A stretch of DNA of 13,954 nucleotides from a virus. Lineage: Duplodnaviria > Heunggongvirae > Uroviricota > Caudoviricetes. Both the position numbers and the translations under genes were made by a program. Shown here in pieces: positions 1 through 13,954 of this stretch (position 1 is its first letter; each line of letters begins with the position of its first letter). Location of the stretch: the IMG/VR virus record IMGVR_UViG_2778261136_000001, positions 1 through 13,954 of that record, one strand, 5' to 3'. The notes under the pieces were generated by a model. That model saw nothing but the letters and a program-made list of their open reading frames with translations. It ran no database searches and had not been told where the DNA came from.

Positions 1-141
1 CAGTTGCTGGACAGGGTTTCCCCGTCTCAGTGGGCGGCAATAGGCGTGCTGGGGAGTCTGCTGTTTGGTCTGCTGACGTACCTGACGAACCTGTATTTCA
101 AAATCAGAGAGGACCGGCGTAAGGCGGCGCGGGGAGAGTAA
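1..141 (+). CDS. S: Holin, C-terminal fragment (phage 21 S21 pinholin-like); 5' end lies outside the window
   Basis: Frame 1 is open from base 1 to TAA at 139-141. It translates to ...[40 protein letters not shown]: a hydrophobic transmembrane stretch followed by a charged C-terminal tail. From memory this closely matches the C-terminus of the phage 21 pinholin. It sits 4 nt upstream of the endolysin start. Confidence 0.7.
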
Positions 142-145
142 GCTG

Positions 146-679
146 ATGAGCCGGAAATTCCGCTATGGTTTATCAGCTGTCGTTCTGGCGCTGATTGCCG
201 CAGGGGCTTCTGCGCCTGAAATCCTCGACCAGTTTCTTGACGAAAAAGAAGGTAACCACACTACGGCATACCGTGATGGTGCGGGTATCTGGACCATCTG
301 CCGTGGAGCCACCCGGGTGGATGGTAAGCCTGTTATTCCTAGCATGAAGCTGTCGAAGGGGAAATGCGACCAGGTTAACGCCATTGAGCGTGATAAGGCG
401 CTGGCATGGGTGGCGAAAAACATCAAAGTGCCACTGACTGAACCCCAGAAAGCGGGTATTGCGTCATTCTGTCCTTACAACATTGGCCCGGGTAAGTGTT
501 TCAGCTCAACGTTTTACCGGAAACTGAACGCCGGAGACCGTAAAGGCGCATGTGCTGAAATTCGTCGCTGGATATATGACGGTGGTCAGGACTGCCGTAT
601 TCGTTCAAACAACTGTTACGGTCAGGTATCCCGTCGTGACCAGGAGAGCGCGCTGGCGTGCTGGGGTATCGACAGGTAG
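146..679 (+). CDS. R: SAR endolysin (T4-type lysozyme / muramidase, phage 21 R-like)
   Basis: 177-aa ORF with SD GGGGAGAG at 131-138. N-terminus MSRKFRYGLSAVVLALIAAGASAPE is a weakly hydrophobic Gly/Ala-rich signal-anchor-release segment. It is followed by the lysozyme catalytic arrangement E...(8)...D...(5)...T in ...KEGNHTTAYRDGAGIWTICRG. Position immediately after a holin gene. Confidence 0.9.
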   Translation: MSRKFRYGLSAVVLALIAAGASAPEILDQFLDEKEGNHTTAYRDGAGIWTICRGATRVDGKPVIPSMKLSKGKCDQVNAIERDKALAWVAKNIKVPLTEPQKAGIASFCPYNIGPGKCFSSTFYRKLNAGDRKGACAEIRRWIYDGGQDCRIRSNNCYGQVSRRDQESALACWGIDR

Positions 680-814
680 CAGAATATTTTGCTGAAAAAT
701 GACGCTTGCTCACGCGGGCTGATAACACGAAATCCTGCGAACTGGCAAAATGCAAGTGAATAAAGTCAGGAAGATTGTTTCACGCAGAGGCACCGTAATG
801 GTGTCTTTGTCATT

Positions 815-952
815 TCTGCGCTTCGCACAAGCGTAAATAAACCAAAGAACCTTTCAGGATGAGCCCTGGTGGATAACCGGCAGTGGTCTGGTTAACCCTC
901 TTTGGGCTGGTTATTCCTGTGCGCAGGGTTCATCACTAAAAGGAAATAACCG
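815..952 (+). promoter_or_regulatory. Conserved 5' leader element, copy 1 (paralog of 2185..2318), upstream of the antirepressor-like gene
   Basis: Shares with copy 2 a GC hairpin (819-833, CGCTT-CGCAC-AAGCG), a 5' box AGAACCTTTCAGGATGA (846-862), a 3' box GGTTCATCACTAAAAGG (927-943) containing the SD, and the same 9-nt SD-to-ATG spacing with ATGAAT start context. The ~65-nt core between the boxes diverges. Confidence 0.6.
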
Positions 953-1522
953 ATGAATATGATGACCGTGCCGTTTCACGGCGATTCTCTTTATGTGGTT
1001 AACCATAACGGTGAGCCATACGTTCCCATGAAACCTGTCGTTGCGGGGATGGGGCTGGCCTGGCAATCACAGTTGGCTAAGTTAAGACAGCGTTTTGTGT
1101 CAACTATAACGGAAATCGTTATGGTTGCTGAGGATGGGAAACGACGCAATATGGTGTCCCTGCCACTTCGAAAACTTGCAGGCTGGTTACAAACCATCAA
1201 TCCCAACAAAGTAAAACCCGAAATCCGCGACAAGGTAATCCAGTATCAGGAAGAGTGCGACGATGTTCTCTATGAATACTGGACGAAGGGTTTTGTCGTT
1301 AATCCTCGTCAAATGAGCGTGATGGAAGAACTCAATCAGGCCTGCGCTGACATGAAACGGGATAAAAACATTGCCAGTGTGTTTTCTACCGGGCTGAATG
1401 AGTGGAAACAGGTTAAAGCCGCGCATGTATCAAAAATCCGCACATTGATAAACGAAGCGAATCTGCTGATTGATTTTGTCCTGGCTGATACAGGCAAAGG
1501 GAAAATAACAAAGGCGGATTGA
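953..1522 (+). CDS. Antirepressor-like phage regulatory protein (moron inserted between R and Rz)
   Basis: 189-aa ORF with SD AAAAGG 9 nt upstream. N-terminal region MNMMTVPFHGDSLYVVNHNGEPYVPMKPVVAGMGLAWQSQLAKL... resembles, from memory, the N-terminal domain family of P22-type antirepressors found in enterobacterial prophages. The function is not established from sequence alone. Confidence 0.55.
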   Translation: MNMMTVPFHGDSLYVVNHNGEPYVPMKPVVAGMGLAWQSQLAKLRQRFVSTITEIVMVAEDGKRRNMVSLPLRKLAGWLQTINPNKVKPEIRDKVIQYQEECDDVLYEYWTKGFVVNPRQMSVMEELNQACADMKRDKNIASVFSTGLNEWKQVKAAHVSKIRTLINEANLLIDFVLADTGKGKITKAD

Positions 1523-1536
1523 TGGAGTGGTGGCTA

Positions 1537-1671
1537 ATGATATCGGATAAACTCATAACGCTGGCGAAGATTCTCTGTGTAATCGTCGGCATTTCATTTT
1601 TAGTCATGCTGGTTGCCATTTTCTTTTCCACCGCCTGGAGAGTCCTGACGTTATCGGGACTGGTGGGGTGA
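1537..1671 (+). CDS. Small hydrophobic protein (44 aa, predicted single transmembrane helix); not in the supplied ORF track
   Basis: ATG at 1537 with GGAG at 1524-1527, TGA at 1669-1671. Translation MISDKLITLAKILCVIVGISFLVMLVAIFFSTAWRVLTLSGLVG is almost entirely one hydrophobic helix. It fills the gap between the ant-like gene and Rz with no wasted sequence. Coding status is unproven. Confidence 0.35.
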   Translation: MISDKLITLAKILCVIVGISFLVMLVAIFFSTAWRVLTLSGLVG

Positions 1672-1678
1672 AAGAGAG

Positions 1679-2116
1679 ATGAACCGTGTTCTGTGTGTGG
1701 TGATTATTGTCCTGGCGGTTGGCTGTGGTGCGCTGTGGCTGGCAACAAACCATTACCGTGACAACGCGCTCACCTACAAAGCGCAGCGCGATAAAGCCAC
1801 ATCCATCATCGCAGATATGCAGAAGCGGCAACGTGATGTAGCAGAACTTGACGCCAGATACACAAAGGAGCTTGCTGATGCTAATGCGACTATCGAAAGT
1901 CTCCGTGCTGATGTTTCTGCTGGGCGTAAGCGCCTGCAAGTCGCCGCCACCTGTGCAAAGTCAACGACCGGAGCCAGCAGCATGGGCGATGGAGAAAGCC
2001 CAGGACTTACAGCAGATGCTGAACTCAATTATTACCGTCTCAGAAGTGGAATCGACAAGATAACCGCGCAGGTTAACTACCTGCAGGAATACATCAGGAC
2101 GCAATGCCTGAAATAA
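1679..2116 (+). CDS. Rz: Rz inner-membrane spanin (i-spanin)
   Basis: 145-aa ORF with N-terminal TM segment and the motif ATNHYRDNALTYKAQRDK...DARYTKELADA...DVSAGRKRL, which closely parallels lambda Rz (VNHYRDNAITYKAQRDK...AKYTKELADA...DVAAGRRRL) as I recall it. Coiled-coil periplasmic domain. It contains the embedded Rz1 frame. Confidence 0.9.
   Translation: MNRVLCVVIIVLAVGCGALWLATNHYRDNALTYKAQRDKATSIIADMQKRQRDVAELDARYTKELADANATIESLRADVSAGRKRLQVAATCAKSTTGASSMGDGESPGLTADAELNYYRLRSGIDKITAQVNYLQEYIRTQCLK
1878..2063 (+). CDS. Rz1: Rz1 outer-membrane lipoprotein spanin (o-spanin), embedded in the +1 frame of Rz
   Basis: Perfect SD AAGGAG at 1865-1870, 7 nt before ATG 1878. N-terminus MLMRLSKVSVLMFLLGVSAC is a signal peptide ending in a lipobox (VSAC), followed by the Pro-rich mature region KSPPPVQSQRPEP. 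It lies entirely inside Rz in a different frame. The track ORF 1848..2063 is the same frame with an upstream start. Confidence 0.8.
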   Translation: MLMRLSKVSVLMFLLGVSACKSPPPVQSQRPEPAAWAMEKAQDLQQMLNSIITVSEVESTR

Positions 2117-2148
2117 TTTTTTTGCAAATCACAAAGTCCATTTAATGA

Positions 2149-2172
2149 GCCCCGCGATGCGGGGCTTTTTTA
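2149..2172 (+). terminator. Rho-independent terminator after Rz/Rz1
   Basis: Perfect 7-bp GC stem GCCCCGC (2149-2155) / GCGGGGC (2159-2165) with a short loop, followed by TTTTTTAT. Confidence 0.7.
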
Positions 2173-2184
2173 TGTACGCAGTAA

Positions 2185-2318
2185 ACGCGCTTCACACGCG
2201 CGACTTATGAACACAGAACCTTTCAGGATGACCCTTGAGGATGCCGGTTTGGTGATCGGTGCCTTTCTGTGGGCCGGAATCCTGTGTGACAAGGTTCATC
2301 ACTAAAAGGTGTGCACTG
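2185..2318 (+). promoter_or_regulatory. Conserved 5' leader element, copy 2 (paralog of 815..952), upstream of the Rha-family gene
   Basis: Hairpin CGCGC-TTCACAC-GCGCG at 2186-2202, 5' box AGAACCTTTCAGGATGA at 2215-2231, 3' box GGTTCATCACTAAAAGG at 2293-2309, then 9 nt to ATGAAT at 2319. It begins about 13 nt after the Rz terminator. Confidence 0.6.
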
Positions 2319-2861
2319 ATGAATTATCCAACTATCGTTAACGGCATCGATTTTCGAGATCTGATTTTTGTGGCAAACAACGATCCGGTTACAGATTCTT
2401 TTATGGTGGCAAAAGCATTTGGAAAGCTGCCGAAGAACGTAGTTCGTGACATTGAACGAACCATAGAAGCTTGCCCTCCTGAGTTTGATACAAAGCTCAA
2501 CTTTGAGCTTTGCTATAAAAACAATGAGTTACAGAATGGTAAGCCGCAAAAATTCTACCGTCTCCGCAAGGATGGGTTGATGCTTTTGGTTATGTCCTAC
2601 ACCAAAAAAGAAGCAATGCGTATCAAAATTGCTTACATCAACGCATTTAACTGGATGTACGCCATGCTTCAGGTTGGTCATCGTCAATTTGAAGAAGAGA
2701 GAAATGCCGTAATGCTGGAGTACATGAAAGAGAAGGATGTTGCCAGCATGTCAGGTCGCCTGCTAAATCGCTGGGGCAAAATTAAGAAGCCACAGCTGCT
2801 GGCTAGAATTGAACGCCTTGAACAGCACGGGCAAACCGTAATCCCCGGACTCATCAATTAA
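2319..2861 (+). CDS. Rha-family phage regulatory protein
   Basis: The track ORF 2259..2861 starts at GTG and reads through the leader. The likely true start is ATG 2319 (MNYPTIVNG...) with SD AAAAGG at 2304-2309. The region ...NDPVTDSFMVAKAFGKLPKNVVRDIERTIE...KFYRLRKDGLMLLVMSYTKKEAMRIKIAYINAFNWM matches my memory of the Rha regulatory protein family (HTH-like N-terminal domain). Confidence 0.7.
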   Translation: MNYPTIVNGIDFRDLIFVANNDPVTDSFMVAKAFGKLPKNVVRDIERTIEACPPEFDTKLNFELCYKNNELQNGKPQKFYRLRKDGLMLLVMSYTKKEAMRIKIAYINAFNWMYAMLQVGHRQFEEERNAVMLEYMKEKDVASMSGRLLNRWGKIKKPQLLARIERLEQHGQTVIPGLIN

Positions 2862-3019
2862 CGGCAGTACCGCGAAACAACCCAAGCCAGAAAGTGGGGA
2901 AATAACACTGGCAGCCACTGAAAGATGAACCTCCTGCCTTATGGCAAAAAAGATTCTTTGTGGTGGCGGACTGATGGAAAGACATCCTAATCAAGCAACC
3001 ACTCCACAGGGTCATAATT

Positions 3020-3400
3020 ATGAACGACCAGCAAATCGAAAAAGAAATCGTTGAGAAAGGCAAAACGGCACCGCGAATCACCCAGCAGCACATCGAAGAC
3101 GTGATTAAAAGCGAGCATTACTTTACTGCTTATGATGGACGAAATGGTGCCATTTCCAGCAACGAATATTGTGGCAGGGAAAAACCAGAAGAAGGAGATC
3201 GTGATTTATCACCATTGAAGTTGCTCACTTTCTGCGTACTGGTGCTGAAGAATGGCTTCACTGTCACCGGAGAGAGTGCCTGTGCAAGCCCGGAAAACTT
3301 TGATGCAGAAATTGGTCGGAAGATTGCCCGGCAGAATGCTGTAAACAAAATCTGGATGCTCGAAGGTTACTTGCTGAAGCAGAAGCTAAGCGAACAGTAG
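3020..3400 (+). CDS. Small conserved phage protein of unknown function (resembles the family I recall as N4 gp49 / Sf6 gp66-like)
   Basis: 126-aa ORF. The C-terminal part LTFCVLVLKNGFTVTGESACASPENFDAEIGRKIARQNAVNKIWMLEGYLLKQ matches my recollection of a widespread small phage protein family often found near terminase genes. The start codon has a weak SD, so the exact start is uncertain. Confidence 0.5.
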   Translation: MNDQQIEKEIVEKGKTAPRITQQHIEDVIKSEHYFTAYDGRNGAISSNEYCGREKPEEGDRDLSPLKLLTFCVLVLKNGFTVTGESACASPENFDAEIGRKIARQNAVNKIWMLEGYLLKQKLSEQ

Positions 3401-3799
3401 TTATTACAAAAGCCATTCCCTACAGAGTGGCTTTGATAATGGCTTATACCCTACACGGGATAACTTAATTGATATCCTTTTTAACGGATAAAGGCATTTC
3501 AGCCTGACATAGCCATGCGCCGCATCGTCGCCGTATTCCCGCATTAACAGAGACCGCAGCCACCTTATCTGCGTGAGTGTGCGGGGATAATCAAAAACGA
3601 TGCACACCGGGTTTTCTCATTTTTCACGAGATGGGAGCGATTTCCCGCGAAGCCGCCTGTCCGGTGCGGTGGTGGAAGAAACCGGATAAAACAACCGCAT
3701 TGTGCAAATATCGATCAAATATGGTGCTGCTGTGTGAAATCTGAAAAATCACAGCGGTCATTATGCATCAGTTTTTAACACAGGACGTCAGAACGTGAC

Positions 3800-4606
3800 A
3801 TGGCAAAGCTGGACTGGAAAAAGCTGGAGCAGGCATTCCGACGCGAACATGCCGAAACGGGAATAACATTACTGGACTGGTGCCGGAAGAAAAAGATTAA
3901 TTACAACACCGCCAGAACCCGTATAAAAATGGGCAAAATCGATCATGAAATTGATCATAAAACCGATCATGAAATCGATCATGACATCTTAGATGAAGAA
4001 CCCTGCAATGACGCGGGTTCCGGCGATGAAAAATGCGCAAAAAACTCTGAAAAAAACTGCGCAAATTCGGCAGAAACGAAACGGATTCGTGGTTCCCGAC
4101 TTTTACCTCCTTCAAACGCTTTTTCTCAGCGCAACACCCACGCCGTAAGACACCGTGGATATGCGAAGTATCTTGAGGCAGATAACCTCATGGATGATGC
4201 TTCCGACATGGTGCTGTTCGATGAACTGGTGTTCACCCGGGCCCGCGCACTTTCAGTAACTAAGGCACTTAAAGGGATGTTCGCCGACCTGGAAGAGGCA
4301 ACTGACGTGGAAACCCGTGTTGCTCTTTACGACAAAATACTCAAAGCTGAACAGGCCCTTGACCGGAATATTGCCCGTATCGAGTCAATTGAACGCTCAT
4401 TGCTGACGCTGGACGTCCTGGCTGAGACAGCACCAAAACTTCGTGCTGACCGGGAAAGAATCAACGCCGCCAGAGATAAACTCAGAGCTGAAACCGATAT
4501 TCTGACCAGCCAGCGTCGGGGCGTTGTTACGCCTGTCAGTGACATCGTGTCATCGCTGCATGAAATGAGTAATTCGGGGAGACTGGATGACATTCCGGAA
4601 GAATGA
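3800..4606 (+). CDS. terS: Terminase small subunit (putative)
   Basis: 268-aa ORF immediately upstream of, and overlapping by 20 nt, the large terminase gene. The N-terminus (KLEQAFRREHAETGITLLDWCRKKKINYNTARTRIKMGK) looks like a helix-turn-helix DNA-binding region, and the C-terminal half is predicted coiled-coil/oligomerisation. It contains an internal GATC-bearing tandem repeat. Assignment is by position and architecture. Confidence 0.65.
   Translation: MAKLDWKKLEQAFRREHAETGITLLDWCRKKKINYNTARTRIKMGKIDHEIDHKTDHEIDHDILDEEPCNDAGSGDEKCAKNSEKNCANSAETKRIRGSRLLPPSNAFSQRNTHAVRHRGYAKYLEADNLMDDASDMVLFDELVFTRARALSVTKALKGMFADLEEATDVETRVALYDKILKAEQALDRNIARIESIERSLLTLDVLAETAPKLRADRERINAARDKLRAETDILTSQRRGVVTPVSDIVSSLHEMSNSGRLDDIPEE
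3938..3985 (+). repeat. Four tandem 12-bp repeats (ATCGATCATGAA-like), each carrying a GATC, inside terS
   Basis: Units ATCGATCATGAA / ATTGATCATAAA / ACCGATCATGAA / ATCGATCATGAC encode IDHE-IDHK-TDHE-IDHD. GATC occurs at 3941, 3953, 3965 and 3977, exactly 12 bp apart. Confidence 0.9.
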
Positions 4607-6293
4607 ACCGCGATGTGATGAGCCGTCAGAAATGACCGAGGCTGAACAACGTCTGTTCATCATGACTAAACTGAGCAATCCCTGGTGGCGGCTCAATCAT
4701 CTCTACAAAATACAGAACGAAAAAGGTGAACTGGTCACCTTCAGAATGCGACCGGCGCAGCGCCAGTTATTCCGGAGCATGCACAATAAAAATATTATCC
4801 TGAAAGCGCGCCAGCTGGGATTTTCCACAGCCATTGATATTTATCTTCTCGACCAGGCATTATTCATTCCGCATCTCAAATGCGGGATCGTCGCTCAGGA
4901 TAAACAGGCTGCCAGTGAAATTTTCCGCACAAAAATTGCTGTACCGTTTGATCATCTCCCTGACTGGCTGAGAGCCTCATTCACCATCGTTGAACGTCGT
5001 AGCGGTGCCAGCGGTGGCTATATCCTGTTTGGTCACGGCTCGAGTATCCAGGTGGCAACCTCATTCCGTTCAGGTACGGTGCAGCGCCTGCATATCTCAG
5101 AGCACGGCAAAATTTGCGCGAAATATCCGGCTAAGGCGAAAGAACTGCGAACCGGTACGCTTAATGCCGTCTCTGATGAATGCATTATTTTTGATGAGTC
5201 CACAGCTGAAGGCGTGGGTGGTGATTTTTACGAGATGAGTAACCGAGCACAGGAGATCACTGCATCAGGCTTATCGTTGACGGCACAGGATTATAAATTC
5301 CATTTTTACGCCTGGTGGCAGGATCCTAAATACAGCGCCCGAGTGCCGGAAAGCGGGCTGAAGCTGTCACGGGAAAAAATGACGTATTTTTCTGCGGTTG
5401 AGAAGGCAATGAACATCACGCTTACTGATGAACAGAAGCAGTGGTACATCAATAAGGAAACTGAACAGCGTGAGGAAATGAAGCAGGAGTTTCCCTCAAC
5501 GCCACAGGAGGCGTTTCTGACGTCCGGACGACGTGTGTTCAGTGCCGAAAGTACGTTGCAGGCAGAATCATTCTGTTCGCCACCGCTGATTGTTTATGAC
5601 ATTGAACCTGTTACAGGAAGGAAGACTAAAGCGCAGTCTCTGCGTGACGGGAATAAAGCCGAACAGCTCCGGACGCTGATGAATTATCTGCTGGTCTGGG
5701 AGCTACCGGATCCAGATGAAGAGTATGTCTGCGGAGCGGATATTGCTGAGGGGCTTGAGCACGGGGACCGCTCATCGCTGGATATCATCAGATGCAGTAA
5801 TGGTGAGCAGGTGGCCCACTGGTTTGGTCATCTTGATGCGGAGCTTTTTGCTCATCTCATTGCGCAGGTCTGTCGTATGTACAACAACGCGTTTGTGGGG
5901 CCGGAGCGTAACAATCACGGACATGCCGTTATTCTGAAACTCAGGGAGCTCTATCCGACGCGTTATATCTACAACGAACAGCACCTTGATCAGGCATATG
6001 ATGACGATACGCCCCGCCTTGGCTGGCTGACAACCCGTCAGAGCAAACCTGTTCTGACCGAAGGAATGAAAACGCTCCTGAATAATGGAATATCAGGGAT
6101 CCGCTGGTCAGGCACATTATCGGAAATGAACACCTACGTTTATGACGCGAAAGGCTCCATGAATGCACAGGAAGGCTGTTTTGATGATCAACTCATGAGC
6201 TACATGATTGCCCAGGAGATGCGCGCCAGAATGCCTGTGAGGGTAAAACAGAAAACGGATAAACGCAGAACTACACACTGGATGGCTCACTGA
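4587..6293 (+). CDS. terL: Terminase large subunit
   Basis: 568-aa ORF with SD GGGAGA at 4574-4579. The N-terminal ATPase region carries a deviant Walker A-like KARQLGFST, and the acidic C-terminal half fits a nuclease domain. It is followed by the portal gene with an ATGA stop/start overlap. An alternative start at ATG 4632 is possible. Confidence 0.85.
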   Translation: MTFRKNEPRCDEPSEMTEAEQRLFIMTKLSNPWWRLNHLYKIQNEKGELVTFRMRPAQRQLFRSMHNKNIILKARQLGFSTAIDIYLLDQALFIPHLKCGIVAQDKQAASEIFRTKIAVPFDHLPDWLRASFTIVERRSGASGGYILFGHGSSIQVATSFRSGTVQRLHISEHGKICAKYPAKAKELRTGTLNAVSDECIIFDESTAEGVGGDFYEMSNRAQEITASGLSLTAQDYKFHFYAWWQDPKYSARVPESGLKLSREKMTYFSAVEKAMNITLTDEQKQWYINKETEQREEMKQEFPSTPQEAFLTSGRRVFSAESTLQAESFCSPPLIVYDIEPVTGRKTKAQSLRDGNKAEQLRTLMNYLLVWELPDPDEEYVCGADIAEGLEHGDRSSLDIIRCSNGEQVAHWFGHLDAELFAHLIAQVCRMYNNAFVGPERNNHGHAVILKLRELYPTRYIYNEQHLDQAYDDDTPRLGWLTTRQSKPVLTEGMKTLLNNGISGIRWSGTLSEMNTYVYDAKGSMNAQEGCFDDQLMSYMIAQEMRARMPVRVKQKTDKRRTTHWMAH

Positions 6294-8437
6294 TGAAAAA
6301 TGAAACTAACACCATGGCGACGAAAAACGACAATGGAGCCACGCCGCGTTTTTCTCAGCGCCAGTTACAGGCGCTTTGTTCTGATATTGACAGCCAGCCT
6401 AAATGGCGTGATGCCGCAAACAAGGCCTGTGCGTATTACGATGGCGATCAGTTGCCACCGGAAGTTCTTCAGGTACTGAAAGATCGCGGTCAGCCGATGA
6501 CTATCCATAACCTCATCGCGCCTACCGTCGATGGCGTTCTGGGAATGGAGGCCAAAACACGGACTGATCTGGTGGTGATGTCAGACGAGCCAGATGATGA
6601 AACTGAAAAACTGGCTGAAGCTATTAATGCTGAATTTGCCGATGCATGCCGCCTTGGCAATATGAATAAAGCCCGCTCTGATGCCTATGCGGAACAAATC
6701 AAGGCGGGCCTCAGTTGGGTGGAGGTCAGACGAAACAGCGATCCGTTCGGGCCTGAATTTAAGGTGTCTACTGTCAGCCGGAATGAGGTTTTCTGGGACT
6801 GGCTGAGCCGGGAGGCTGATTTAAGTGACTGCCGCTGGCTGATGCGTCGCCGCTGGATGGATACCGATGAGGCAAAAGCTACATTCCCGGGAATGGCTCA
6901 GGTTATCGATTATGCCATTGATGACTGGCGTGGTTTTGTCGATAGCACGGTTACTGAAGGCCAGCCCAGTCCGTTGATGAGTGCATGGGAAGAGTATCAG
7001 TCATGGGATCGACAGCAGAACGAATGGCTTCAGCGTGAACGCCGTCGTGTGCTGCTTCAGGTGGTTTATTACCGTACATTCGAGCGTCTTCCGGTGATTG
7101 AACTCAGTAATGGACGGGTGGTGGCCTTTGATAAAAATAATCTGATGCAGGCGGTAGCTGTGGCATCCGGGCGGGTTCAGGTGAAAGTCGGGCGGGTAAG
7201 CCGTATTCGTGAAGCCTGGTTTGTCGGGCCACACTTTATTGTGGATCGCCCCTGTAGTGCTCCGCAGGGGATGTTTCCGCTGGTTCCTTTCTGGGGATAC
7301 CGAAAGGATAAAACCGGGGAGCCATACGGGCTAATTTCCCGCGCCATTCCGGCACAGGATGAGGTGAATTTTCGTCGTATCAAGCTGACCTGGTTGCTTC
7401 AGGCCAAACGCGTGATTATGGACGAGGATGCCACCCAGTTGTCAGACAACGACCTGATGGAGCAGATCGAACGTCCGGATGGCATTATTAAACTGAATCC
7501 GGTCCGAAAAAATCAGAAAAGTGTCGCAGATGTTTTTCGGGTTGAGCAGGATTTTCAGGTTGCCAGCCAGCAGTTTCAGGTCATGCAGGAATCGGAAAAA
7601 CTTATCCAGGATACCATGGGAGTGTATTCCGCATTTCTCGGGCAGGAGTCAGGTGCGACGTCAGGCGTGGCTATCAGTAACCTGGTGGAGCAGGGGGCCA
7701 CAACCCTTGCGGAAATCAACGATAACTACCAGTTTGCCTGCCAGCAGGTGGGAAGACTGTTGCTGGCTTATCTTCTCGATGACCTGAAAAAACGCCGTAA
7801 TCATGCAGTAGTGATTAATCGCGATGATCGTCAGCGTCGCCAGACCATTGTCCTCAATGCTGAAGGTGATAATGGTGAACTGACCAATGATATTTCAAGG
7901 TTAAATACACATATTGCGCTGGCTCCTGTTCAGCAGACACCTGCGTTTAAGGCACAGCTTGCACAGAGAATGTCAGAGGTTATTCAGGGGCTGCCGCCTC
8001 AGGTGCAGGCTGTTGTGCTCGACCTGTGGGTTAATCTTCTGGATGTGCCGCAGAAACAGGAGTTTGTTGAGCGTATTCGTGCTGCGCTGGGGACGCCAAA
8101 ATCACCGGATGAAATGACGCCGGAAGAACAGGAAGTAGCGGCACAACAACAGGCACTTCAGCAACAACAGGCAGAACTCCAGATGCGCGAGATGGCTGGC
8201 AGAGTGGCAAAACTGGAAGCTGACGCCGCCAGGGCTCATGCTGCTGCACAACGGGATAATGCCAGTGCACAGCGGGAAGTTGCCCTGACACAGGGGCAGC
8301 GTTATGTGGATGCGCTTAACCAGGCACATACGGCAGAAATCATTACCGGCATACAGAATATGGAACAGGAGCAGGACGTTCTTCAGCAACAGATGCTGTA
8401 TACGTTACAACAGCGGATGAATGAAATGTCGCTCTGA
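6293..8437 (+). CDS. Portal protein, with a Gln-rich C-terminal coiled-coil extension
   Basis: 714-aa ORF directly after terL (TGATGA overlap). The size and the long C-terminal helical Gln/Ala-rich tail (...AAQQQALQQQQAELQMREMAGRVAKLEADAARAHAAAQ...) are reminiscent of P22-type portals with a C-terminal barrel. Assignment is by position, size and composition. Confidence 0.8.
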   Translation: MKNETNTMATKNDNGATPRFSQRQLQALCSDIDSQPKWRDAANKACAYYDGDQLPPEVLQVLKDRGQPMTIHNLIAPTVDGVLGMEAKTRTDLVVMSDEPDDETEKLAEAINAEFADACRLGNMNKARSDAYAEQIKAGLSWVEVRRNSDPFGPEFKVSTVSRNEVFWDWLSREADLSDCRWLMRRRWMDTDEAKATFPGMAQVIDYAIDDWRGFVDSTVTEGQPSPLMSAWEEYQSWDRQQNEWLQRERRRVLLQVVYYRTFERLPVIELSNGRVVAFDKNNLMQAVAVASGRVQVKVGRVSRIREAWFVGPHFIVDRPCSAPQGMFPLVPFWGYRKDKTGEPYGLISRAIPAQDEVNFRRIKLTWLLQAKRVIMDEDATQLSDNDLMEQIERPDGIIKLNPVRKNQKSVADVFRVEQDFQVASQQFQVMQESEKLIQDTMGVYSAFLGQESGATSGVAISNLVEQGATTLAEINDNYQFACQQVGRLLLAYLLDDLKKRRNHAVVINRDDRQRRQTIVLNAEGDNGELTNDISRLNTHIALAPVQQTPAFKAQLAQRMSEVIQGLPPQVQAVVLDLWVNLLDVPQKQEFVERIRAALGTPKSPDEMTPEEQEVAAQQQALQQQQAELQMREMAGRVAKLEADAARAHAAAQRDNASAQREVALTQGQRYVDALNQAHTAEIITGIQNMEQEQDVLQQQMLYTLQQRMNEMSL

Positions 8438-8455
8438 AAACTCTGGCTTCAACTG

Positions 8456-8482
8456 AACCCCGTCATCGTACGGGGTTTTTTG
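8456..8482 (+). terminator. Rho-independent terminator after the portal gene
   Basis: Stem AACCCCGT (8456-8463) / ACGGGGTT (8470-8477), loop CATCGT, followed by a T-run (TTTTTTGTTT). Confidence 0.65.
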
Positions 8483-8594
8483 TTTCCGGAGGTAAGCGTT
8501 CCGGGAGCGGTGCGCTTATTCGCGGGGGCAGCGATAAGCCTTATTTACTCAACCATTCGGATCTGTCCGATAAACAGACCATGCGGAGTTATTT

Positions 8595-9602
8595 ATGGAT
8601 TTTGAATTTACGGGTGAAGAAACCCCGGAACAACTGGAAAAAATGCTGGAAGGACTTGGGGATGTGGATATTGACAGTCACGCACAGGACGTCGTGACGG
8701 AAGATACCACGGAAAAAAATGCGGATGAGGAAGCACAGACTCAGACGGGCGATAACAATGTGGCACCGACGCCGGATGCCAGTGTGGAGCAGACGCAGGA
8801 CGTGAAGGAGCCGGAAGTGAAGGGGGTGCTCACCCGCGACGGTAAACACGTCATTCCCTATGAAGTCCTTGAGGCTGAACGTTCCGGTAAGCAACGGGCC
8901 GAACAGGAAGCCGCACTTCTTCGTGGGCAGATAGCTGAAGAAAAACGCAGGGTGGAACTGCTGACGTCTCAGATCCACCAGGCCGGTATGAAGCCCACAC
9001 CGTTACCGGAAAACGAAAAAATTTCTGATGAGCAGATTGCCCGTATCAGGGAGATGTATCCGGAAATTGGTGACGCGGTGGCTTCGCTCATCCGTAAAAA
9101 TAACTATCTCCAGTCCCGTGTTCAGCAATCAACACAGCAGGCAGAAGGTAATGGTGGTGAGGATTTATCACCGGTTCTTGATGCGATGAATGCCGTGCCG
9201 GTGCTGAAAACGTGGCAGGAGTCCGATCCGGATCGCTTCTCGGTTGCTGTATCCATCGACGGGAAGCTCCAGAATGACCCCGCATGGAAAGACAAAACGC
9301 TCACTGAACGTTTCGCTGAAGTGGCCCGTCGTACGCAGGTTGCTTTCGGTGAAGTCAGTGAGTCGTCTGCTGACAACCAGGCAGACAAAACGGATATCCG
9401 GAAAACGGCGGAAGAGAAAGTGAAGACCGCTGAACGGGAGCAGGCAGTACCAGCTTCCCCGTCAGATTTAGGCACCACGGCCTCCGTCGGAACCGGTGAT
9501 AATTTTGAACGGTTACTTGGCGCTTCTCATTCAGAGGCAGAGGCGATTATGCGTGGTATGACGAATGCTGAAATAGACGCGCTTCTGGAGAAGCTCGGGT
9601 AA
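8595..9602 (+). CDS. Scaffolding protein (putative)
   Basis: 335-aa ORF between portal and capsid genes. It is highly acidic and low-complexity at the N-terminus (DVDIDSHAQDVVTEDTTEKNADEEAQTQTGDNN), with a charged, predicted helical middle and C-terminus. Assignment is by position and composition only. Confidence 0.55.
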   Translation: MDFEFTGEETPEQLEKMLEGLGDVDIDSHAQDVVTEDTTEKNADEEAQTQTGDNNVAPTPDASVEQTQDVKEPEVKGVLTRDGKHVIPYEVLEAERSGKQRAEQEAALLRGQIAEEKRRVELLTSQIHQAGMKPTPLPENEKISDEQIARIREMYPEIGDAVASLIRKNNYLQSRVQQSTQQAEGNGGEDLSPVLDAMNAVPVLKTWQESDPDRFSVAVSIDGKLQNDPAWKDKTLTERFAEVARRTQVAFGEVSESSADNQADKTDIRKTAEEKVKTAEREQAVPASPSDLGTTASVGTGDNFERLLGASHSEAEAIMRGMTNAEIDALLEKLG

Positions 9603-9625
9603 CTTACTGAAGGAGTACTGAAGTA

Positions 9626-10840
9626 ATGACGACTGTAACATCAGCCCAGGCGAATAAGCTGTATCAGGTGGCGCTTTTTACCGCTGCCAATCGCAACCGC
9701 TCGATGGTCAATATCCTCACTGAACAGCAGGAAGCGCCAAAAGCAGTTTCGCCGGACAAGAAAAGCACAAAGCAGACCAGCGCGGGTGCGCCGGTTGTCC
9801 GTATCACAGACCTTAACAAACAGGCCGGTGATGAAGTGGCGTTCAGCATCATGCATAAACTCTCAAAGCGTCCGACGATGGGAGATGAGCGTGTTGAAGG
9901 TCGTGGTGAAGACCTTAGCCATGCTGATTTTTCCCTGAAAATTAATCAGGGCCGTCACCTGGTGGATGCGGGCGGACGCATGAGCCAGCAGCGTACGAAG
10001 TTCAACCTGGCATCCTCTGCCAGAACGCTTCTGGGGACGTACTTTAATGACCTGCAGGACCAGTGTGCGATAGTGCATCTTGCTGGAGCTCGCGGTGATT
10101 TTGTTGCTGACGACACTATTCTGCCGACAGCGGAGCACCCTGAATTCAAAAAAATCATGATCAACGATGTACTGCCTCCGACACATGACCGTCACTTTTT
10201 TGGCGGTGATGCGACAAGCTTTGAGCAGATCGAAGCGGCAGATATTTTTTCTATTGGCCTGGTGGACAATCTCTCCCTGTTCATTGACGAAATGGCGCAT
10301 CCGTTACAGCCGGTTCGTCTGTCCGGTGATGAACTTCACGGAGAAGATCCATATTACGTCCTGTACGTCACGCCGCGTCAGTGGAATGACTGGTACACCT
10401 CGACTTCCGGGAAGGACTGGAACCAGATGATGGTTCGTGCCGTGAACCGTGCAAAAGGTTTTAACCATCCGCTGTTCAAAGGTGAATGTGCGATGTGGCG
10501 GAATATCCTGGTTCGTAAGTATGCGGGTATGCCGATCCGTTTCTATCAGGGTTCAAAGGTTCTGGTATCAGAGAATAACCTGACGGCAACAACGAAAGAG
10601 GTCGCTGCTGCAACCAATATTGACCGCGCCATGTTACTGGGGGCTCAGGCGCTGGCAAATGCTTACGGTCAGAAGGCAGGCGGTCACTTCAACATGGTTG
10701 AGAAGAAAACGGATATGGATAACCGTACTGAGATAGCAATCAGCTGGATCAACGGTCTGAAAAAAATCCGTTTCCCCGAGAAGAGCGGCAAGATGCAGGA
10801 TCACGGCGTGATTGCCGTTGATACCGCAGTGAAGCTCTGA
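9626..10840 (+). CDS. Major capsid (coat) protein (putative)
   Basis: 404-aa ORF with strong SD AAGGAG at 9610-9615, immediately after the scaffold gene and followed by a strong terminator, as expected for a highly expressed coat gene. The family is not recognised from memory; assignment is positional. Confidence 0.6.
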   Translation: MTTVTSAQANKLYQVALFTAANRNRSMVNILTEQQEAPKAVSPDKKSTKQTSAGAPVVRITDLNKQAGDEVAFSIMHKLSKRPTMGDERVEGRGEDLSHADFSLKINQGRHLVDAGGRMSQQRTKFNLASSARTLLGTYFNDLQDQCAIVHLAGARGDFVADDTILPTAEHPEFKKIMINDVLPPTHDRHFFGGDATSFEQIEAADIFSIGLVDNLSLFIDEMAHPLQPVRLSGDELHGEDPYYVLYVTPRQWNDWYTSTSGKDWNQMMVRAVNRAKGFNHPLFKGECAMWRNILVRKYAGMPIRFYQGSKVLVSENNLTATTKEVAAATNIDRAMLLGAQALANAYGQKAGGHFNMVEKKTDMDNRTEIAISWINGLKKIRFPEKSGKMQDHGVIAVDTAVKL

Positions 10841-10856
10841 TTTTTCCTTTCCCCAT

Positions 10857-10880
10857 GCCGGGTTTTCGCCCGGCTTTTTC
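10857..10880 (+). terminator. Rho-independent terminator after the putative coat gene
   Basis: Stem GCCGGG (10857-10862) / CCCGGC (10869-10874), loop TTTTCG, then TTTTT. Confidence 0.65.
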
Positions 10881-10894
10881 TGGAGTCATTAATT

Positions 10895-11284
10895 ATGGCA
10901 AAGACTATTCTTGCCCCGTCACTGAGTGAACGGGTCTATACGGGCACGCACGGTAATGAGTCGGTGGCAGAAGGCGTATTTACGGTGAATGCTGCGGAAG
11001 CGGACAGTGTTATTCATCTTCTCTCACTGCCAGTTGGCATCCGTATCAACTCACTCCAGCTGGTTTCAACGGGCGGTCTGGGTACTGCAACCGTCAGCAT
11101 TAAGTCTGGTGAGCATGTTCTCATCGATAACAGCGAAGCTGTTTCTGCAAAATTTGCCAGATATGTGCCAGTGGAGCCGTACACCACACAGCGTGACGGA
11201 GAGCTGGTTACTGTCACCATTAAGACTGCCGCTGCAACCGGCACCCTGAATGTTCTGCTGCGTTATACCGTGGTGGGATACTGA
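10895..11284 (+). CDS. Small beta-rich virion-associated protein (possible head decoration/accessory protein)
   Basis: 129-aa ORF with GGAG 9 nt upstream. Gly/Thr/Val-rich composition consistent with a beta-sandwich. Located directly after the coat gene and bracketed by terminators. Function inferred from position only. Confidence 0.45.
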   Translation: MAKTILAPSLSERVYTGTHGNESVAEGVFTVNAAEADSVIHLLSLPVGIRINSLQLVSTGGLGTATVSIKSGEHVLIDNSEAVSAKFARYVPVEPYTTQRDGELVTVTIKTAAATGTLNVLLRYTVVGY

Positions 11285-11297
11285 TTAAAACCTTCCG

Positions 11298-11320
11298 GCC
11301 CGCGTTATGCGGGCTTTTTA
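11298..11320 (+). terminator. Rho-independent terminator after the small capsid-associated gene
   Basis: Stem GCCCGC (11298-11303) / GCGGGC (11309-11314), loop GTTAT, then TTTTTA. Confidence 0.65.
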
Positions 11321-11334
11321 TCCGGGGAATTTAT

Positions 11335-11796
11335 ATGAGCGAGAAAATTGCCGTTGTCTATATCGGCCCAAAACCCGTGAAAAAGGACACCATTACCGGA
11401 AGTCGCACGCTGTTCCCACGTCTTGAGCCGGTGCATGTTGACAGCGCGATGGCCTGGCAACTGCTGGGGTTTCCGGATGTCTGGGTTCGTCATGAAGAGC
11501 TTGATGATGTTCTGAAAAAGCAACAACAGAATGAGCAGTTGCGGCAGGCACAGCAGGCGCAGGAAAGAGTGCTTGCTGCGCTGGCAGAAGCGGAGAACAG
11601 TTTTGTTGTTTCTGTTAACGGGCAGGAGGTGGATTTAAGTAAGCTCACCTCAGCACGGCTGGCGACGCTGTGTGAGGCAGAAGAGCTGGATATTCACAAA
11701 GACCCGAAAGAAACGGCTGAGGCATTCCGTATCCGGGTGCGTGAGGCATTTCGCCGTCGTGTTGCGGAGACTGAACAGCATGGCGGAACTGAGTGA
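11335..11796 (+). CDS. Hypothetical virion morphogenesis protein (possible head completion/adaptor)
   Basis: 153-aa ORF with coding-like composition. Its stop overlaps the next gene's start by 17 nt. No family recognised. Confidence 0.55.
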   Translation: MSEKIAVVYIGPKPVKKDTITGSRTLFPRLEPVHVDSAMAWQLLGFPDVWVRHEELDDVLKKQQQNEQLRQAQQAQERVLAALAEAENSFVVSVNGQEVDLSKLTSARLATLCEAEELDIHKDPKETAEAFRIRVREAFRRRVAETEQHGGTE

Positions 11797-12343
11797 TTTT
11801 TTACCATATGTCCGTCGTCATATCAGCGGTCCACTGAACATTATGATGACGGATGCTCTGTCAATGGCTGCCGTGGCATTCAGCCGCCAGTCGTTGGTGT
11901 GCCGTCGGGAGGTTACTGTTGTACCGGTGGCAGGAAAAGAAATCGTGCTTCCGTATGACAAAGATGATGAGGAGTGCGTTCATATCATCCGTATCTCTGA
12001 CGATAATCATGAGCTTTTTGTCGGTCGGGATGTGGATATCAGCTCCGGACGCTCCCTGCGATTTGCCTGTTCTCCCGGTGAGGTGAGCGTGCTTTATGCC
12101 GTCGCTCCGAAAGCTGGACGCAGCCAGATACCGGATGAACTCCTCACATGGCCTGAAGAAGTGGCTGCGGGGGCACTTGAGCGGTTGTTCATGCAGACTG
12201 GTGTTTCATGGTCAGACCCGTCGCGCGCACAGTATTTTTCTGTGCAGTTTTCTGAGGGGATCCGTCGGGCATATCGTCATACATTGGCGACAAGCCCGTA
12301 CTCTTCATACCGCAACCCTGTACGCAGGCAGAGGTTTTACTGA
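11780..12343 (+). CDS. Hypothetical virion morphogenesis protein
   Basis: The track ORF 11672..12343 has an Arg-rich N-terminal extension that overlaps the previous gene and looks non-coding. The likely start is ATG 11780 (MAELSDFLPYVRRH...). Its stop overlaps the next start (TGATG at 12341-12345). Confidence 0.55.
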   Translation: MAELSDFLPYVRRHISGPLNIMMTDALSMAAVAFSRQSLVCRREVTVVPVAGKEIVLPYDKDDEECVHIIRISDDNHELFVGRDVDISSGRSLRFACSPGEVSVLYAVAPKAGRSQIPDELLTWPEEVAAGALERLFMQTGVSWSDPSRAQYFSVQFSEGIRRAYRHTLATSPYSSYRNPVRRQRFY

Positions 12344-12993
12344 TGACGACGATTACAGAAATCATCGGACGTGTGAATACACAACTGGTTGACCCGATGA
12401 TGGTTCGCTGGCCCCTGCAGGAATTGTGCGATTATTACAATGATGCTGTGAGGGCAGTGATTCTGGCGAGACCGGATGCTGGCGCAAGCCTGGAAACAAT
12501 CAGTTGTGTTCCTGGCGCCCGTCAGGTTTTGCCCGATGGTGTAATACAACTTCTTGACGTGATATGCCTCAGTGACGGTAGTGCAGTCAGACCATTATCC
12601 CGGGAGGTGCTGGATGCGCAGTATCCTGAGTGGCCCACAATGAAGGGCATTCCTGAATGTTTTATCAGCAACGACCTGTCCCCGCGCGTATTCTGGCTGT
12701 TTCCTGTCCCTGACAAAGAGATAAGTATTGATGCAGTGGTAAGCCGGATACCGGAGGCAGTGTATGTTCTGACGCAGGACGATGATACGCCAGTTCCACT
12801 GGAAGAGGCTTATGTTAACCCACTGGTGGACTGGATGTTGTTTCGTGCTTTCAGTAAGGATGCTGCCGGTGGTGCAGAATCGGGGCTGGCTGCGCAGCAT
12901 TATCAGAGTTTTGTTGAGCAACTTGGGATCAAACAGGGGGCAGACAGTGCATTGTCTGCCCGTAAAAAAGTGTTTAACGGAGGTGGAGTGTGA
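12343..12993 (+). CDS. Hypothetical virion morphogenesis protein (possible tail/neck component)
   Basis: 216-aa ORF translationally coupled to both neighbours (ATGA overlap upstream, GTGTGA overlap downstream). No family recognised. Confidence 0.6.
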
Positions 12994-13954
12994 GTGTTGT
13001 TGTTTCGGGGACGCTGAAATCTCCTGATGGTGAGGCGATATCAGGAGCAAATATTACCCTGACGGCGCTGACAGTTTCACCGGATGCGCTCAGCGGCACC
13101 AGTGCGTCGGCAGTGACCCGTGAAGGTGGATATTACGGAATGACGATGGATCCGGGGGAGTATGCGGTTTCGGTGACGGTGAAAGGGAAGACAGCTGTCT
13201 ACGGACGTGTGCGTATTGAGGGGACCGAAAGTACGGTGACGCTCAATATGCTGTTACGCCGCAGTCTTGTTGAGGTGAGCATACCCGGAGAGCTGCTGAC
13301 AGATTTCCGGCAGATACAGAATAATGTGGCTGATGACCTTGCCACTATTCGTCGCCTGAATGAAGACACGGCGACAAAAAACACTCAGGCCACACAGTCA
13401 AAAGAAAGTGCAGCAGCCAGTGCGAAGAGTGCATCTGACAGTGCAAAGACGGCAACCAGCAGGGCGGCTGAAGCCGGACAAAAAGCGACTGATGCCACTG
13501 AGGCCGCGACCCGTGCAATCACAGCAGCGGGGAATGCAGAGGAAAGCTCGACCCGTGCCGGAGAGTCTGAAAAAGCCGCCGGAGCTGATGCAGAAAAAGC
13601 CAGACAGCATGCTGAAAAGGCCAGGCTGGCGCAGGAGAGCGCCGGAGAGATCCTTAAGCGGGCAGAGGCTGCCACTGTCAGTGCTGAAGAGGCCAGACGT
13701 ATGGCTGAGAATGCACGGGGGCCCCGGGGGCCTCAGGGAGAAACTGGTCCGAAGGGGGATGTCGGTCCTAAAGGCGAAACAGGTCCAGTGGGCCCTCAAG
13801 GGCCCGCAGGGCCGAAAGGTGAGCGTGGTGACGTTGGTGCTCAGGGGGCTGTAGGGCCCGCTGGTCCGCGTGGTGAGAAGGGCGAACAGGGGGAGCGAGG
13901 ACCGCAGGGAATACCAGGCCTGAAGGGGGATACCGGAGAGCGGGGGCCTAAAGG
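12990..13954 (+). CDS. Side tail fiber protein, N-terminal part (continues past the window end), with collagen-like Gly-X-Y repeats
   Basis: GTG start at 12990 with SD GGAGG at 12979-12983; the frame stays open to the window end. The N-terminus [26 protein letters not shown]...[22 protein letters not shown] parallels the lambda Stf N-terminal domain (MAVKISGVLKDGTGKP...GRYSMDVEYGQYSV) as I recall it. An Ala/Ser/Thr-rich repetitive segment is followed from about 13716 by uninterrupted G-X-Y triplets ([40 protein letters not shown]...). Confidence 0.8.
13716..13954 (+). repeat. Collagen-like Gly-X-Y triplet repeat region within the tail fiber gene
   Basis: About 26 consecutive G-X-Y codon triplets in the tail-fiber frame, extending to the window end. 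Confidence 0.85.

Follow-up and report, generated by a model that had tools for sequence, protein, structure and literature searches.

Four 12-bp tandem units, each containing a GATC, lie inside the small terminase gene (terS; 3800–4606, plus strand, 268 residues) of a 13,954-nucleotide stretch of Caudoviricetes DNA (IMG/VR record IMGVR_UViG_2778261136_000001, positions 1 to 13,954, hereafter the window), and on balance they probably form the array recognized by the small terminase subunit (TerS) at the packaging initiation (pac) site of 933W-type phages, as a GATC variant, specific to this lineage, of an array of TGCGCA hexamers found throughout the family. The window corresponds to the late region of a 933W-like Shiga-toxin (Stx) phage (Sepvirinae), and bases 3700–4700 are 99.2–99.7% identical to 933W, VT2-Sakai, Stx2 phage 86, Shigella phages POCJ13 and 75/02, and many others. 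In members of this TerS family, the array appears to be located inside the phage's own small-terminase gene, immediately after the part encoding a helix-turn-helix (HTH) domain, and we infer from the comparison of related sequences that TerS binds to its hexamers. Elements of this kind are already known from phage P1; what is new here is the different terminase lineage, the family-wide series of motifs and the covariation between helix and hexamer.

The units follow the pattern AAA(T/C)(C/T)GATCAT(G/A) and occupy 3936–3988 together with a partial fifth copy: AAATCGATCATG at 3936–3947, AAATTGATCATA at 3948–3959, AAACCGATCATG at 3960–3971 and AAATCGATCATG again at 3972–3983, followed by ACATC. 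Tandem Repeats Finder delimits the same interval (period 12, 4.4 copies, 82% matches, score 78), in agreement with the sequence-only reading from which this analysis started, which had described four 12-bp repeats, each with a GATC and one with a full TGATCA. The GATC sites start at 3941, 3953, 3965 and 3977, at an exact 12-bp spacing, with no other GATC between 3716 and 4886; one hexamer is TGATCA (3952–3957) and the remaining three are CGATCA. The repeat is in frame within terS, where it encodes K-IDHE-IDHK-TDHE-IDHD. GATC is depleted over the window (39 sites, versus 57.8 ± 7.3 expected, with at least 39 in 200/200 shuffles), and the four-site cluster in terS stands out from this GATC-poor background. 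At least four GATC within 48 bp were obtained in 3.5% of 600 first-order Markov simulations, and tandem duplication of a unit with one GATC accounts for the multiplicity of the site better than independent occurrence does.

The GATC units are proposed as the left arm of the recognition array. A possible right arm is provided by two motifs at 4028–4065, each consisting of an A-tract and TGCGCA (4034–4039 and 4058–4063, 24 bp apart), which account for two of the six TGCGCA in the window. They lie in the A-rich imperfect direct repeat noticed in the sequence-only reading, the copies of which are indeed present (GAAAAATGCGCAAA at 4028–4041 and GAAAAAAACTGCGCAAA at 4049–4065), but the secondary rank given to it there did not hold, since TGCGCA proved to be ancestral and family-wide: judging from the related genes, the pair is a retained ancestral motif. 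A degenerate hexamer, TGGGCA, is found just upstream of the GATC units (3930–3935), at nt 131 of the gene, where relatives carry TGCGCA. The roughly 44 bp that separate the GATC arm from the TGCGCA pair (3984–4027) are a candidate terminase cut zone, purely by analogy with P1, in which the cleavage sites sit between two arms of hexamers.

The evidence that carries this interpretation comes from terS loci collected from IMG/VR, GTDB species genomes and individual assemblies, over a range of protein identity from 100% down to 37%. A hexamer array was present at the position following the HTH region in every relative examined, and, within the 222 nt that follow the helix, the commonest hexamer tracked the sequence of that helix in 57/57 distinct terS linkers. 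Genes with a (S/T)ARR(Y/H) helix, from Aeromonas, Serratia, Yersinia, Brenneria, Citrobacter and GER2-type E. coli, carry five to seven copies of TGCGCA (43/43 linkers); those with a SAKRY helix, from Pectobacterium, Brenneria and Symbiopectobacterium, carry five copies of TTCGCA (5/5 linkers); and those with a TART(R/Q) helix, from 933W-type E. coli and Salmonella loci, carry three to six copies of the GATC-containing (C/T)GATCA with a 12-bp period (9/9 linkers). The (C/T)GATCA array was found only together with an ART(R/Q) helix; four further Salmonella genes with an ARTQ helix repeat AAAAGTGATCAA or AAAAACGATCAT three to five times, exactly every 12 bp. TGCGCA or TTCGCA arrays, for which no description was found in the searchable literature, occur in prophages of GER2-type E. 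coli, Citrobacter, Salmonella, Yersinia, Serratia, Brenneria, Pectobacterium and Aeromonas, and in Klebsiella phage RothC, in which an AKRY helix is accompanied by TGCGAATTCGCA, as the pattern predicts. These arrays resemble the GATC array in their gene, their place after the HTH region and their proposed role, and in the E. coli and Salmonella members they also share its 12-bp register and A-rich flanks. They differ from it in having no Dam site, in their ARRY or AKRY helix in place of ART(R/Q), and in being read in several frames and spaced irregularly (9, 10, 14 and 27 bp).

The GATC hexamers, at gene nt 141+12n, agree in both register and frame with the TGCGCA units of GER2-type loci (at 165, 177 and 189), from which they differ by having AT for the central CG (T GAT CA instead of T GCG CA). 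The helix change accompanying the GATC motif is from R40-Y41 to T-R or T-Q. At gene nt 131, TGCGCA is found in GER2-type loci, in the Salmonella loci L113, L121 and L123 and in Salmonella class-B genes, in the place of the degenerate TGGGCA of the window. The E. coli units and the Salmonella class-B units differ at three of the four residues encoded (IDHE versus SDQK), with GATCA, the A-tract and the 12-bp period shared. In a comparison of the window with the GER2-type loci L005 and L054, divergence was confined to about 3838–4068, an interval comprising HTH helices 2–3 and the array, with a DNA identity of 25–80%, versus mostly 87–100% in the flanks, as would be expected of an exchangeable or fast-co-evolving specificity cassette. 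The sequence-only reading had taken absence of the repeat from functional close relatives as a sign against it, and GER2-type genes, the TerS of which is about 75% identical, do literally lack the GATC repeat; however, in these genes a TGCGCA array takes up the same register and the recognition helix is altered, a combination that supports the pac interpretation rather than refuting it. That reading had also asked whether homologous terS genes keep the DNA repeat when the protein linker diverges; TGCGCA is retained from Aeromonas to E. coli although the peptides cannot be aligned. TerS variants with an unrelated N-terminal domain and a similar C-terminal body have different arrays at the same place: GTACGCA, five to six times and in two reading frames, at terS nt 100–300 of the Klebsiella phages GZ7 and ST512-KPC3phi13.5 (L119/L120), and TCCGTC/GACGGA in both orientations at terS nt 130–210 of a Salmonella prophage (L117, protein cluster P0068). 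This suggests a general cassette made of a DNA-binding domain and its self-encoded site.

The TGCGCA and TTCGCA arrays are, from their sequences, clearly constrained at the DNA level. The observed hexamer count exceeded that of 5000/5000 synonymous recodings in 13/14 genes tested, and in the exception (L097) it was reached by 7/5000. The hexamers are read in two to three frames (S-A-Q, V-R-K, L-R-K, M-R-N, C-A), their spacings are not multiples of three (10 and 14 bp, for example), and the rest of the gene contains zero to one copies. As a flanking control, 0/5624 windows of 222 nt had more than four copies of any hexamer; the same scan recovered TGATCA in P1 pacA, used as a positive control.

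The product of terS matches the PHROG 370 profile over its full length (residues 1–268, E=1.7e-124), has 379 homologues at E≤1e-3, and its orthologues in 933W, VT2-Sakai and other records are annotated as terminase or terS. AlphaFold2 models, built on an alignment of 13–15 homologues, predict three N-terminal helices (residues 6–20, 24–31 and 35–41; predicted local distance difference test (pLDDT) scores 75–89), then a disordered segment (residues 46–125, pLDDT <50) and long C-terminal helices. The three-helix HTH region (residues 6–41), which also gives the PacA profile matches described below, is encoded at 3815–3922 (plus strand), and helix 3 (residues 35–41, YNTARTR; 3902–3922, plus strand) is the putative recognition helix. 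The repeat corresponds to codons 46–61, directly after helix 3, and therefore codes for the start of the flexible linker. Foldseek searches with the N-terminal domain returned top neighbours that were nearly all HTH DNA-binding proteins, none of them significant (all E>0.3), and searches with the full-length model mostly returned coiled coils. Pfam scans of TerS and of the large terminase subunit (TerL) gave no match, and a PDB sequence search with the TerS family profile gave no meaningful match.

The closest known counterpart is the pac site of P1, which the PacA/PacB pacase cleaves in a Dam-dependent manner. The N-terminus of TerS matches phrog_1711, the P1 PacA family (E=2.5e-5, residues 5–96), and PacA matches phrog_370, the family of 933W TerS, in return (E=1.9e-4, residues 3–104); for comparison, PacA matches its own phrog_1711 at E=4e-202. 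TerS residues 6–48 were aligned with PacA residues 3–45 by hhalign (E=1.2e-4), and BLASTP gave E=0.009 for TerS against PacA; the C-terminal bodies of the two proteins are unrelated. As annotated in the P1 record, pacA itself contains the experimentally mapped pac cleavage sites and the TGATCA/G hexamers, immediately past the HTH domain; the hexamers start at codon 65, after the aligned helix. The GATC array has the same placement, inside the small-subunit gene and 3' of the DNA-binding region, and in both cases there are several hexamers containing GATC, mostly read as Asp-His or Asp-Gln; Salmonella relatives mostly have TGATCA. Spacings of 11–12 bp are found in the right arm of P1 pac and in a PacA relative with 70% identity, in which the TGATCA hexamers are kept at 12-bp spacing and the peptide is changed. 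P1 has seven hexamers in arms of four and three, whereas the window has four strictly tandem units, any second arm being TGCGCA twice, and three of its four hexamers are CGATCA rather than TGATCA/G. TerS, with 268 residues and a different C-terminal body, is also shorter than PacA (397 residues), and its recognition helix reads ARTR. In the 70%-identical PacA relative (L175, a P1-like contig from IMG/VR), the TGATCA hexamers, only some of them at 12-bp spacing, are at pacA nt 195–350, and the peptide encoded there (NDQSSDHKNSDH) is very similar to the TerS linker of Salmonella class B (KSDQKSDHKNDH); this likeness could reflect convergence or an old exchange of terminase genes between P1-like and lambdoid phages.

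Similarities to P22, Sf6 and SPP1 are of a more general kind. In all three, the recognition site is in or next to the small-terminase gene, and TerS combines an N-terminal HTH with an oligomerization domain, an organization that is predicted here; the window also has a P22-like portal. The motifs of SPP1 pacL and pacR are repeated and rich in A-tracts, as are those described here. By contrast, P22 pac has no hexamer array but one asymmetric sequence of about 22 bp, and TerS of the window has no sequence relationship to its counterparts in these phages, to judge from the absence of a Pfam match, and the class of its TerL ('933W type') is different.

Like P1, 933W encodes its own Dam methyltransferase (PF05869, E=1e-64), from a gene at 16823–17350 of its genome, and, according to the literature, both phages package by the headful mechanism and carry out generalized transduction. 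Dam is present in the hosts, and each of the four hexamers contains a Dam target; by analogy with P1, sensitivity of recognition or cleavage at the array to Dam methylation is plausible. Generalized transduction by 933W has been reported, and the failure to sequence the ends of its genome was taken as a sign of terminal redundancy (PMC3752737). 'Headful (933W type)' is a recognized class of TerL (PMC7317114, PMC6029569), for which recognition of the initiation site has been described as unresolved (PMC7317114).

A mechanism can be proposed on this basis. TerS would assemble into a ring via its C-terminal helices, and its N-terminal HTH domains, carried on a disordered linker of about 80 residues, would each bind one (C/T)GATCA, the bound hexamers being spaced by 12 bp with short A-tracts between them; the two TGCGCA hexamers further downstream may be bound by these domains as well. 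Binding would mark concatemeric phage DNA as pac, and TerL would then be recruited, cut nearby and begin headful packaging. The ancestral TGCGCA would have exchanged its central CG for AT in the 933W/Salmonella lineage, giving TGATCA or CGATCA, with a concurrent change of helix residues 40–41 from R-Y to T-R or T-Q. This change would have placed a Dam site in every hexamer, so that recognition or cleavage would probably have become sensitive to N6-methyladenine, as at P1 pac; this is nevertheless the least certain step of the mechanism, and it has, in our view, clearly less than an even chance of being correct. A broader proposition joins these elements: a re-programmable cassette, consisting of a PacA-like HTH (helix-3 residues 39–41) and hexamers encoded in its own linker, would have brought the pac site of the Stx lineage under Dam control, with the phage Dam acting as a checkpoint for the timing of packaging, a P1-like solution in an unrelated terminase lineage. 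Within it, replacement of Arg by Lys or by Thr would track the loss of a guanine (TGCGCA to TTCGCA and TGCGCA to TGATCA, respectively). As a whole, this proposition is tentative, and we consider it unlikely, albeit worth stating.

Several observations weigh against the array being a TerS recognition site. The GATC array fails the synonymous recoding test (four sites observed versus a mean of 2.83, with 1434/5000 recodings reaching four), because Asp-His codons nearly force GATC. Its units are all in one frame with a strict 12-nt period, as slippage of a codon repeat would give, and their number ranges from one to seven among near-identical terS genes, the one-unit and two-unit forms being partial proteins on short contigs. 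The covariation of helix and motif represents only about four to six independent lineage switches. The homology with PacA covers about 43–100 N-terminal residues, with modest E-values and an hhalign probability of 55%, and PacA itself has an ARRY helix together with TGATCA hexamers, so there is no simple universal code linking helix and hexamer. A second GATC arm is absent, the next GATC being at 4886 and the downstream TGCGCA pair having no Dam hexamer, and no integration host factor (IHF) site (WATCAANNNNTTR, at most one mismatch) was found in 2531–4785, although a consensus scan is a weak test; with a single GATC arm and no IHF-like site, the array is not a copy of P1 pac. The best BLASTP match of the window TerL to P1 PacB had an E-value of 3.9, and the two proteins share only a match to the very broad phrog_2. 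Membership of the whole enzyme in a 'P1-type pacase' was rejected for lack of TerL–PacB similarity by BLASTP, and, with no relationship of the large subunits detected by this method, the resemblance to P1 is confined to the recognition module. Finally, the searchable literature contained no mapped pac site, terminus, pac-fragment or coverage data for Stx phages or this TerS family, and the ends of GenBank records are uninformative on termini, phi419-type records having simply been re-opened at terL.

Some of these points are what would be expected if the repeat were a slippage-prone (I/T)DH(E/K) peptide in a flexible linker, with GATC as a by-product of GAT CAY codons and no function of the DNA. 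This is the main competing explanation, and we give it a real but minor chance of being right. It is favored by the predicted disorder of the linker, by the unremarkable number of GATC given the peptide, by the single frame and strict period, and by the variation in copy number; yet it does not account for the arrays of relatives at the homologous position, which are demonstrably DNA-level (two to three frames, 13/14 genes exceeding 5000 recodings), for conservation of the motif from Aeromonas to E. coli in peptides that cannot be aligned, or for the register and flanks that the GATC units share with TGCGCA arrays. Nor does it explain why the motif switches along with the recognition helix, why IDHE and SDQK peptides alike go with GATCA, the A-tract and a 12-bp period, or why the four-unit form is stable over 387/5426 complete E. 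coli genomes. The sequence-only reading had proposed a packaging element rather than a mere low-complexity linker: the reciprocal PacA matches, the P1-like position, the tracking of the helix by relatives' arrays and the headful class in the literature lend this substantial support, but for the GATC array itself the recoding test cannot separate constraint on the DNA from constraint on the protein. The case for the 933W repeat consequently rests on positional homology, conservation across hosts, the coupled change in the helix, the mosaic structure of the locus and the P1 precedent, which point to a recognition array.

Two other functions of the DNA can be considered. TerS might bind the array for autoregulation of terS and terL, as a roadblock or through translational control, rather than for choosing the start of packaging. 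The site is indeed in the coding sequence of terS, about 130 nt from the start codon, DNA-binding proteins commonly regulate themselves through binding within their own gene, and the covariation of helix and hexamer would fit any TerS–DNA interaction equally well; however, neither a promoter-like nor a terminator-like site was detected in a scan of 3400–4700, no other pac site is known for the 933W-type phages, which must have one, and, to our knowledge, every characterized TerS site in or near terS (P1, P22, Sf6 and SPP1) serves as pac, making this explanation improbable. Slightly less probable still, and in our opinion very unlikely, is a role for the phased GATC cluster as a sequestration element for the host SeqA/Dam system, bound in its hemimethylated state and organizing or timing phage DNA replication. 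SeqA binding is favored by GATC sites on one face of the helix, and the four sites at 12-bp spacing lie roughly on one face; at least two helically phased GATC within about 30 bp, as expected of a SeqA cluster, are present. The depletion of GATC elsewhere in the window and the phage-encoded Dam methyltransferase would also fit, but close relatives carry TGCGCA, which is a target of neither Dam nor SeqA, in place of GATC and have no other GATC cluster, and the covariation with the TerS helix would be left unexplained.

Of 5426 complete E. coli genomes, 387 have the array, in almost every case with ≥99% identity. Among the loci collected, 41 have four units, two have three and one has five, and protein clusters with one, two and seven units also exist (near-identical set P0001, P0016, P0020, L002 and L038): variation in unit number is tolerated and four is the stable form. 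In a set of records of Stx2a prophages from Japan (LC7278xx), a three-unit GATC array is followed directly on its 3' side by an inserted IS3-family element. This insertion spans about 3277–4588 in L004 (LC727841.1), the equivalent point in the window being just past 3988, and the element has an open reading frame (ORF) of 296 residues with an rve domain, another of 108 residues with HTH_Tnp_1, and terminal repeats TGAACCGCCCCGGG. As the rest of terS is missing from these prophages, they should be unable to package.

Downstream from terS, the window encodes TerL, of the '933W-type headful' class (4587–6293, plus strand; phrog_2, E=2e-53, with record annotations and PMC7317114 in support), and the P22-like portal protein (6293–8437, plus strand; Pfam PF16510, E=1.5e-128). 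Upstream, an ORF at 3020–3400 (plus strand) encodes a protein of the PF13876 family (N4 gp49 / Sf6 gp66; E=4e-35), whereas the reference record of 933W has bor annotated between Rz and terS, on the other strand, a mosaic difference immediately upstream of terS. A 21-bp tandem repeat (AGTGCAGCAGACAGTGCAAAG; two copies, 81% match) is present at 13407–13449, in the downstream structural-gene region. A Dam-regulated promoter at the GATC repeat was also considered, and was rejected because the promoter and terminator scan was empty.

For annotators, these arrays are a caution that 'low-complexity linkers' of terS can be overprinted DNA signals. If the proposed reading is correct, TGCGCA, TTCGCA and TGATCA, with their matching helices, would constitute a natural specificity series for studying how ring-shaped TerS proteins read DNA, and the 933W-type site would be a second Dam-gated pac site, 35 years after that of P1. 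Phages of the 933W type carry the Shiga toxin genes of enterohaemorrhagic E. coli, including O157:H7 and O104:H4, and a candidate of about 130 bp makes their packaging initiation site directly testable. The location of such a site would also predict where, and in which direction, host DNA adjacent to the prophage is packaged, and hence the virulence and resistance genes that may be spread by lateral or generalized transduction.

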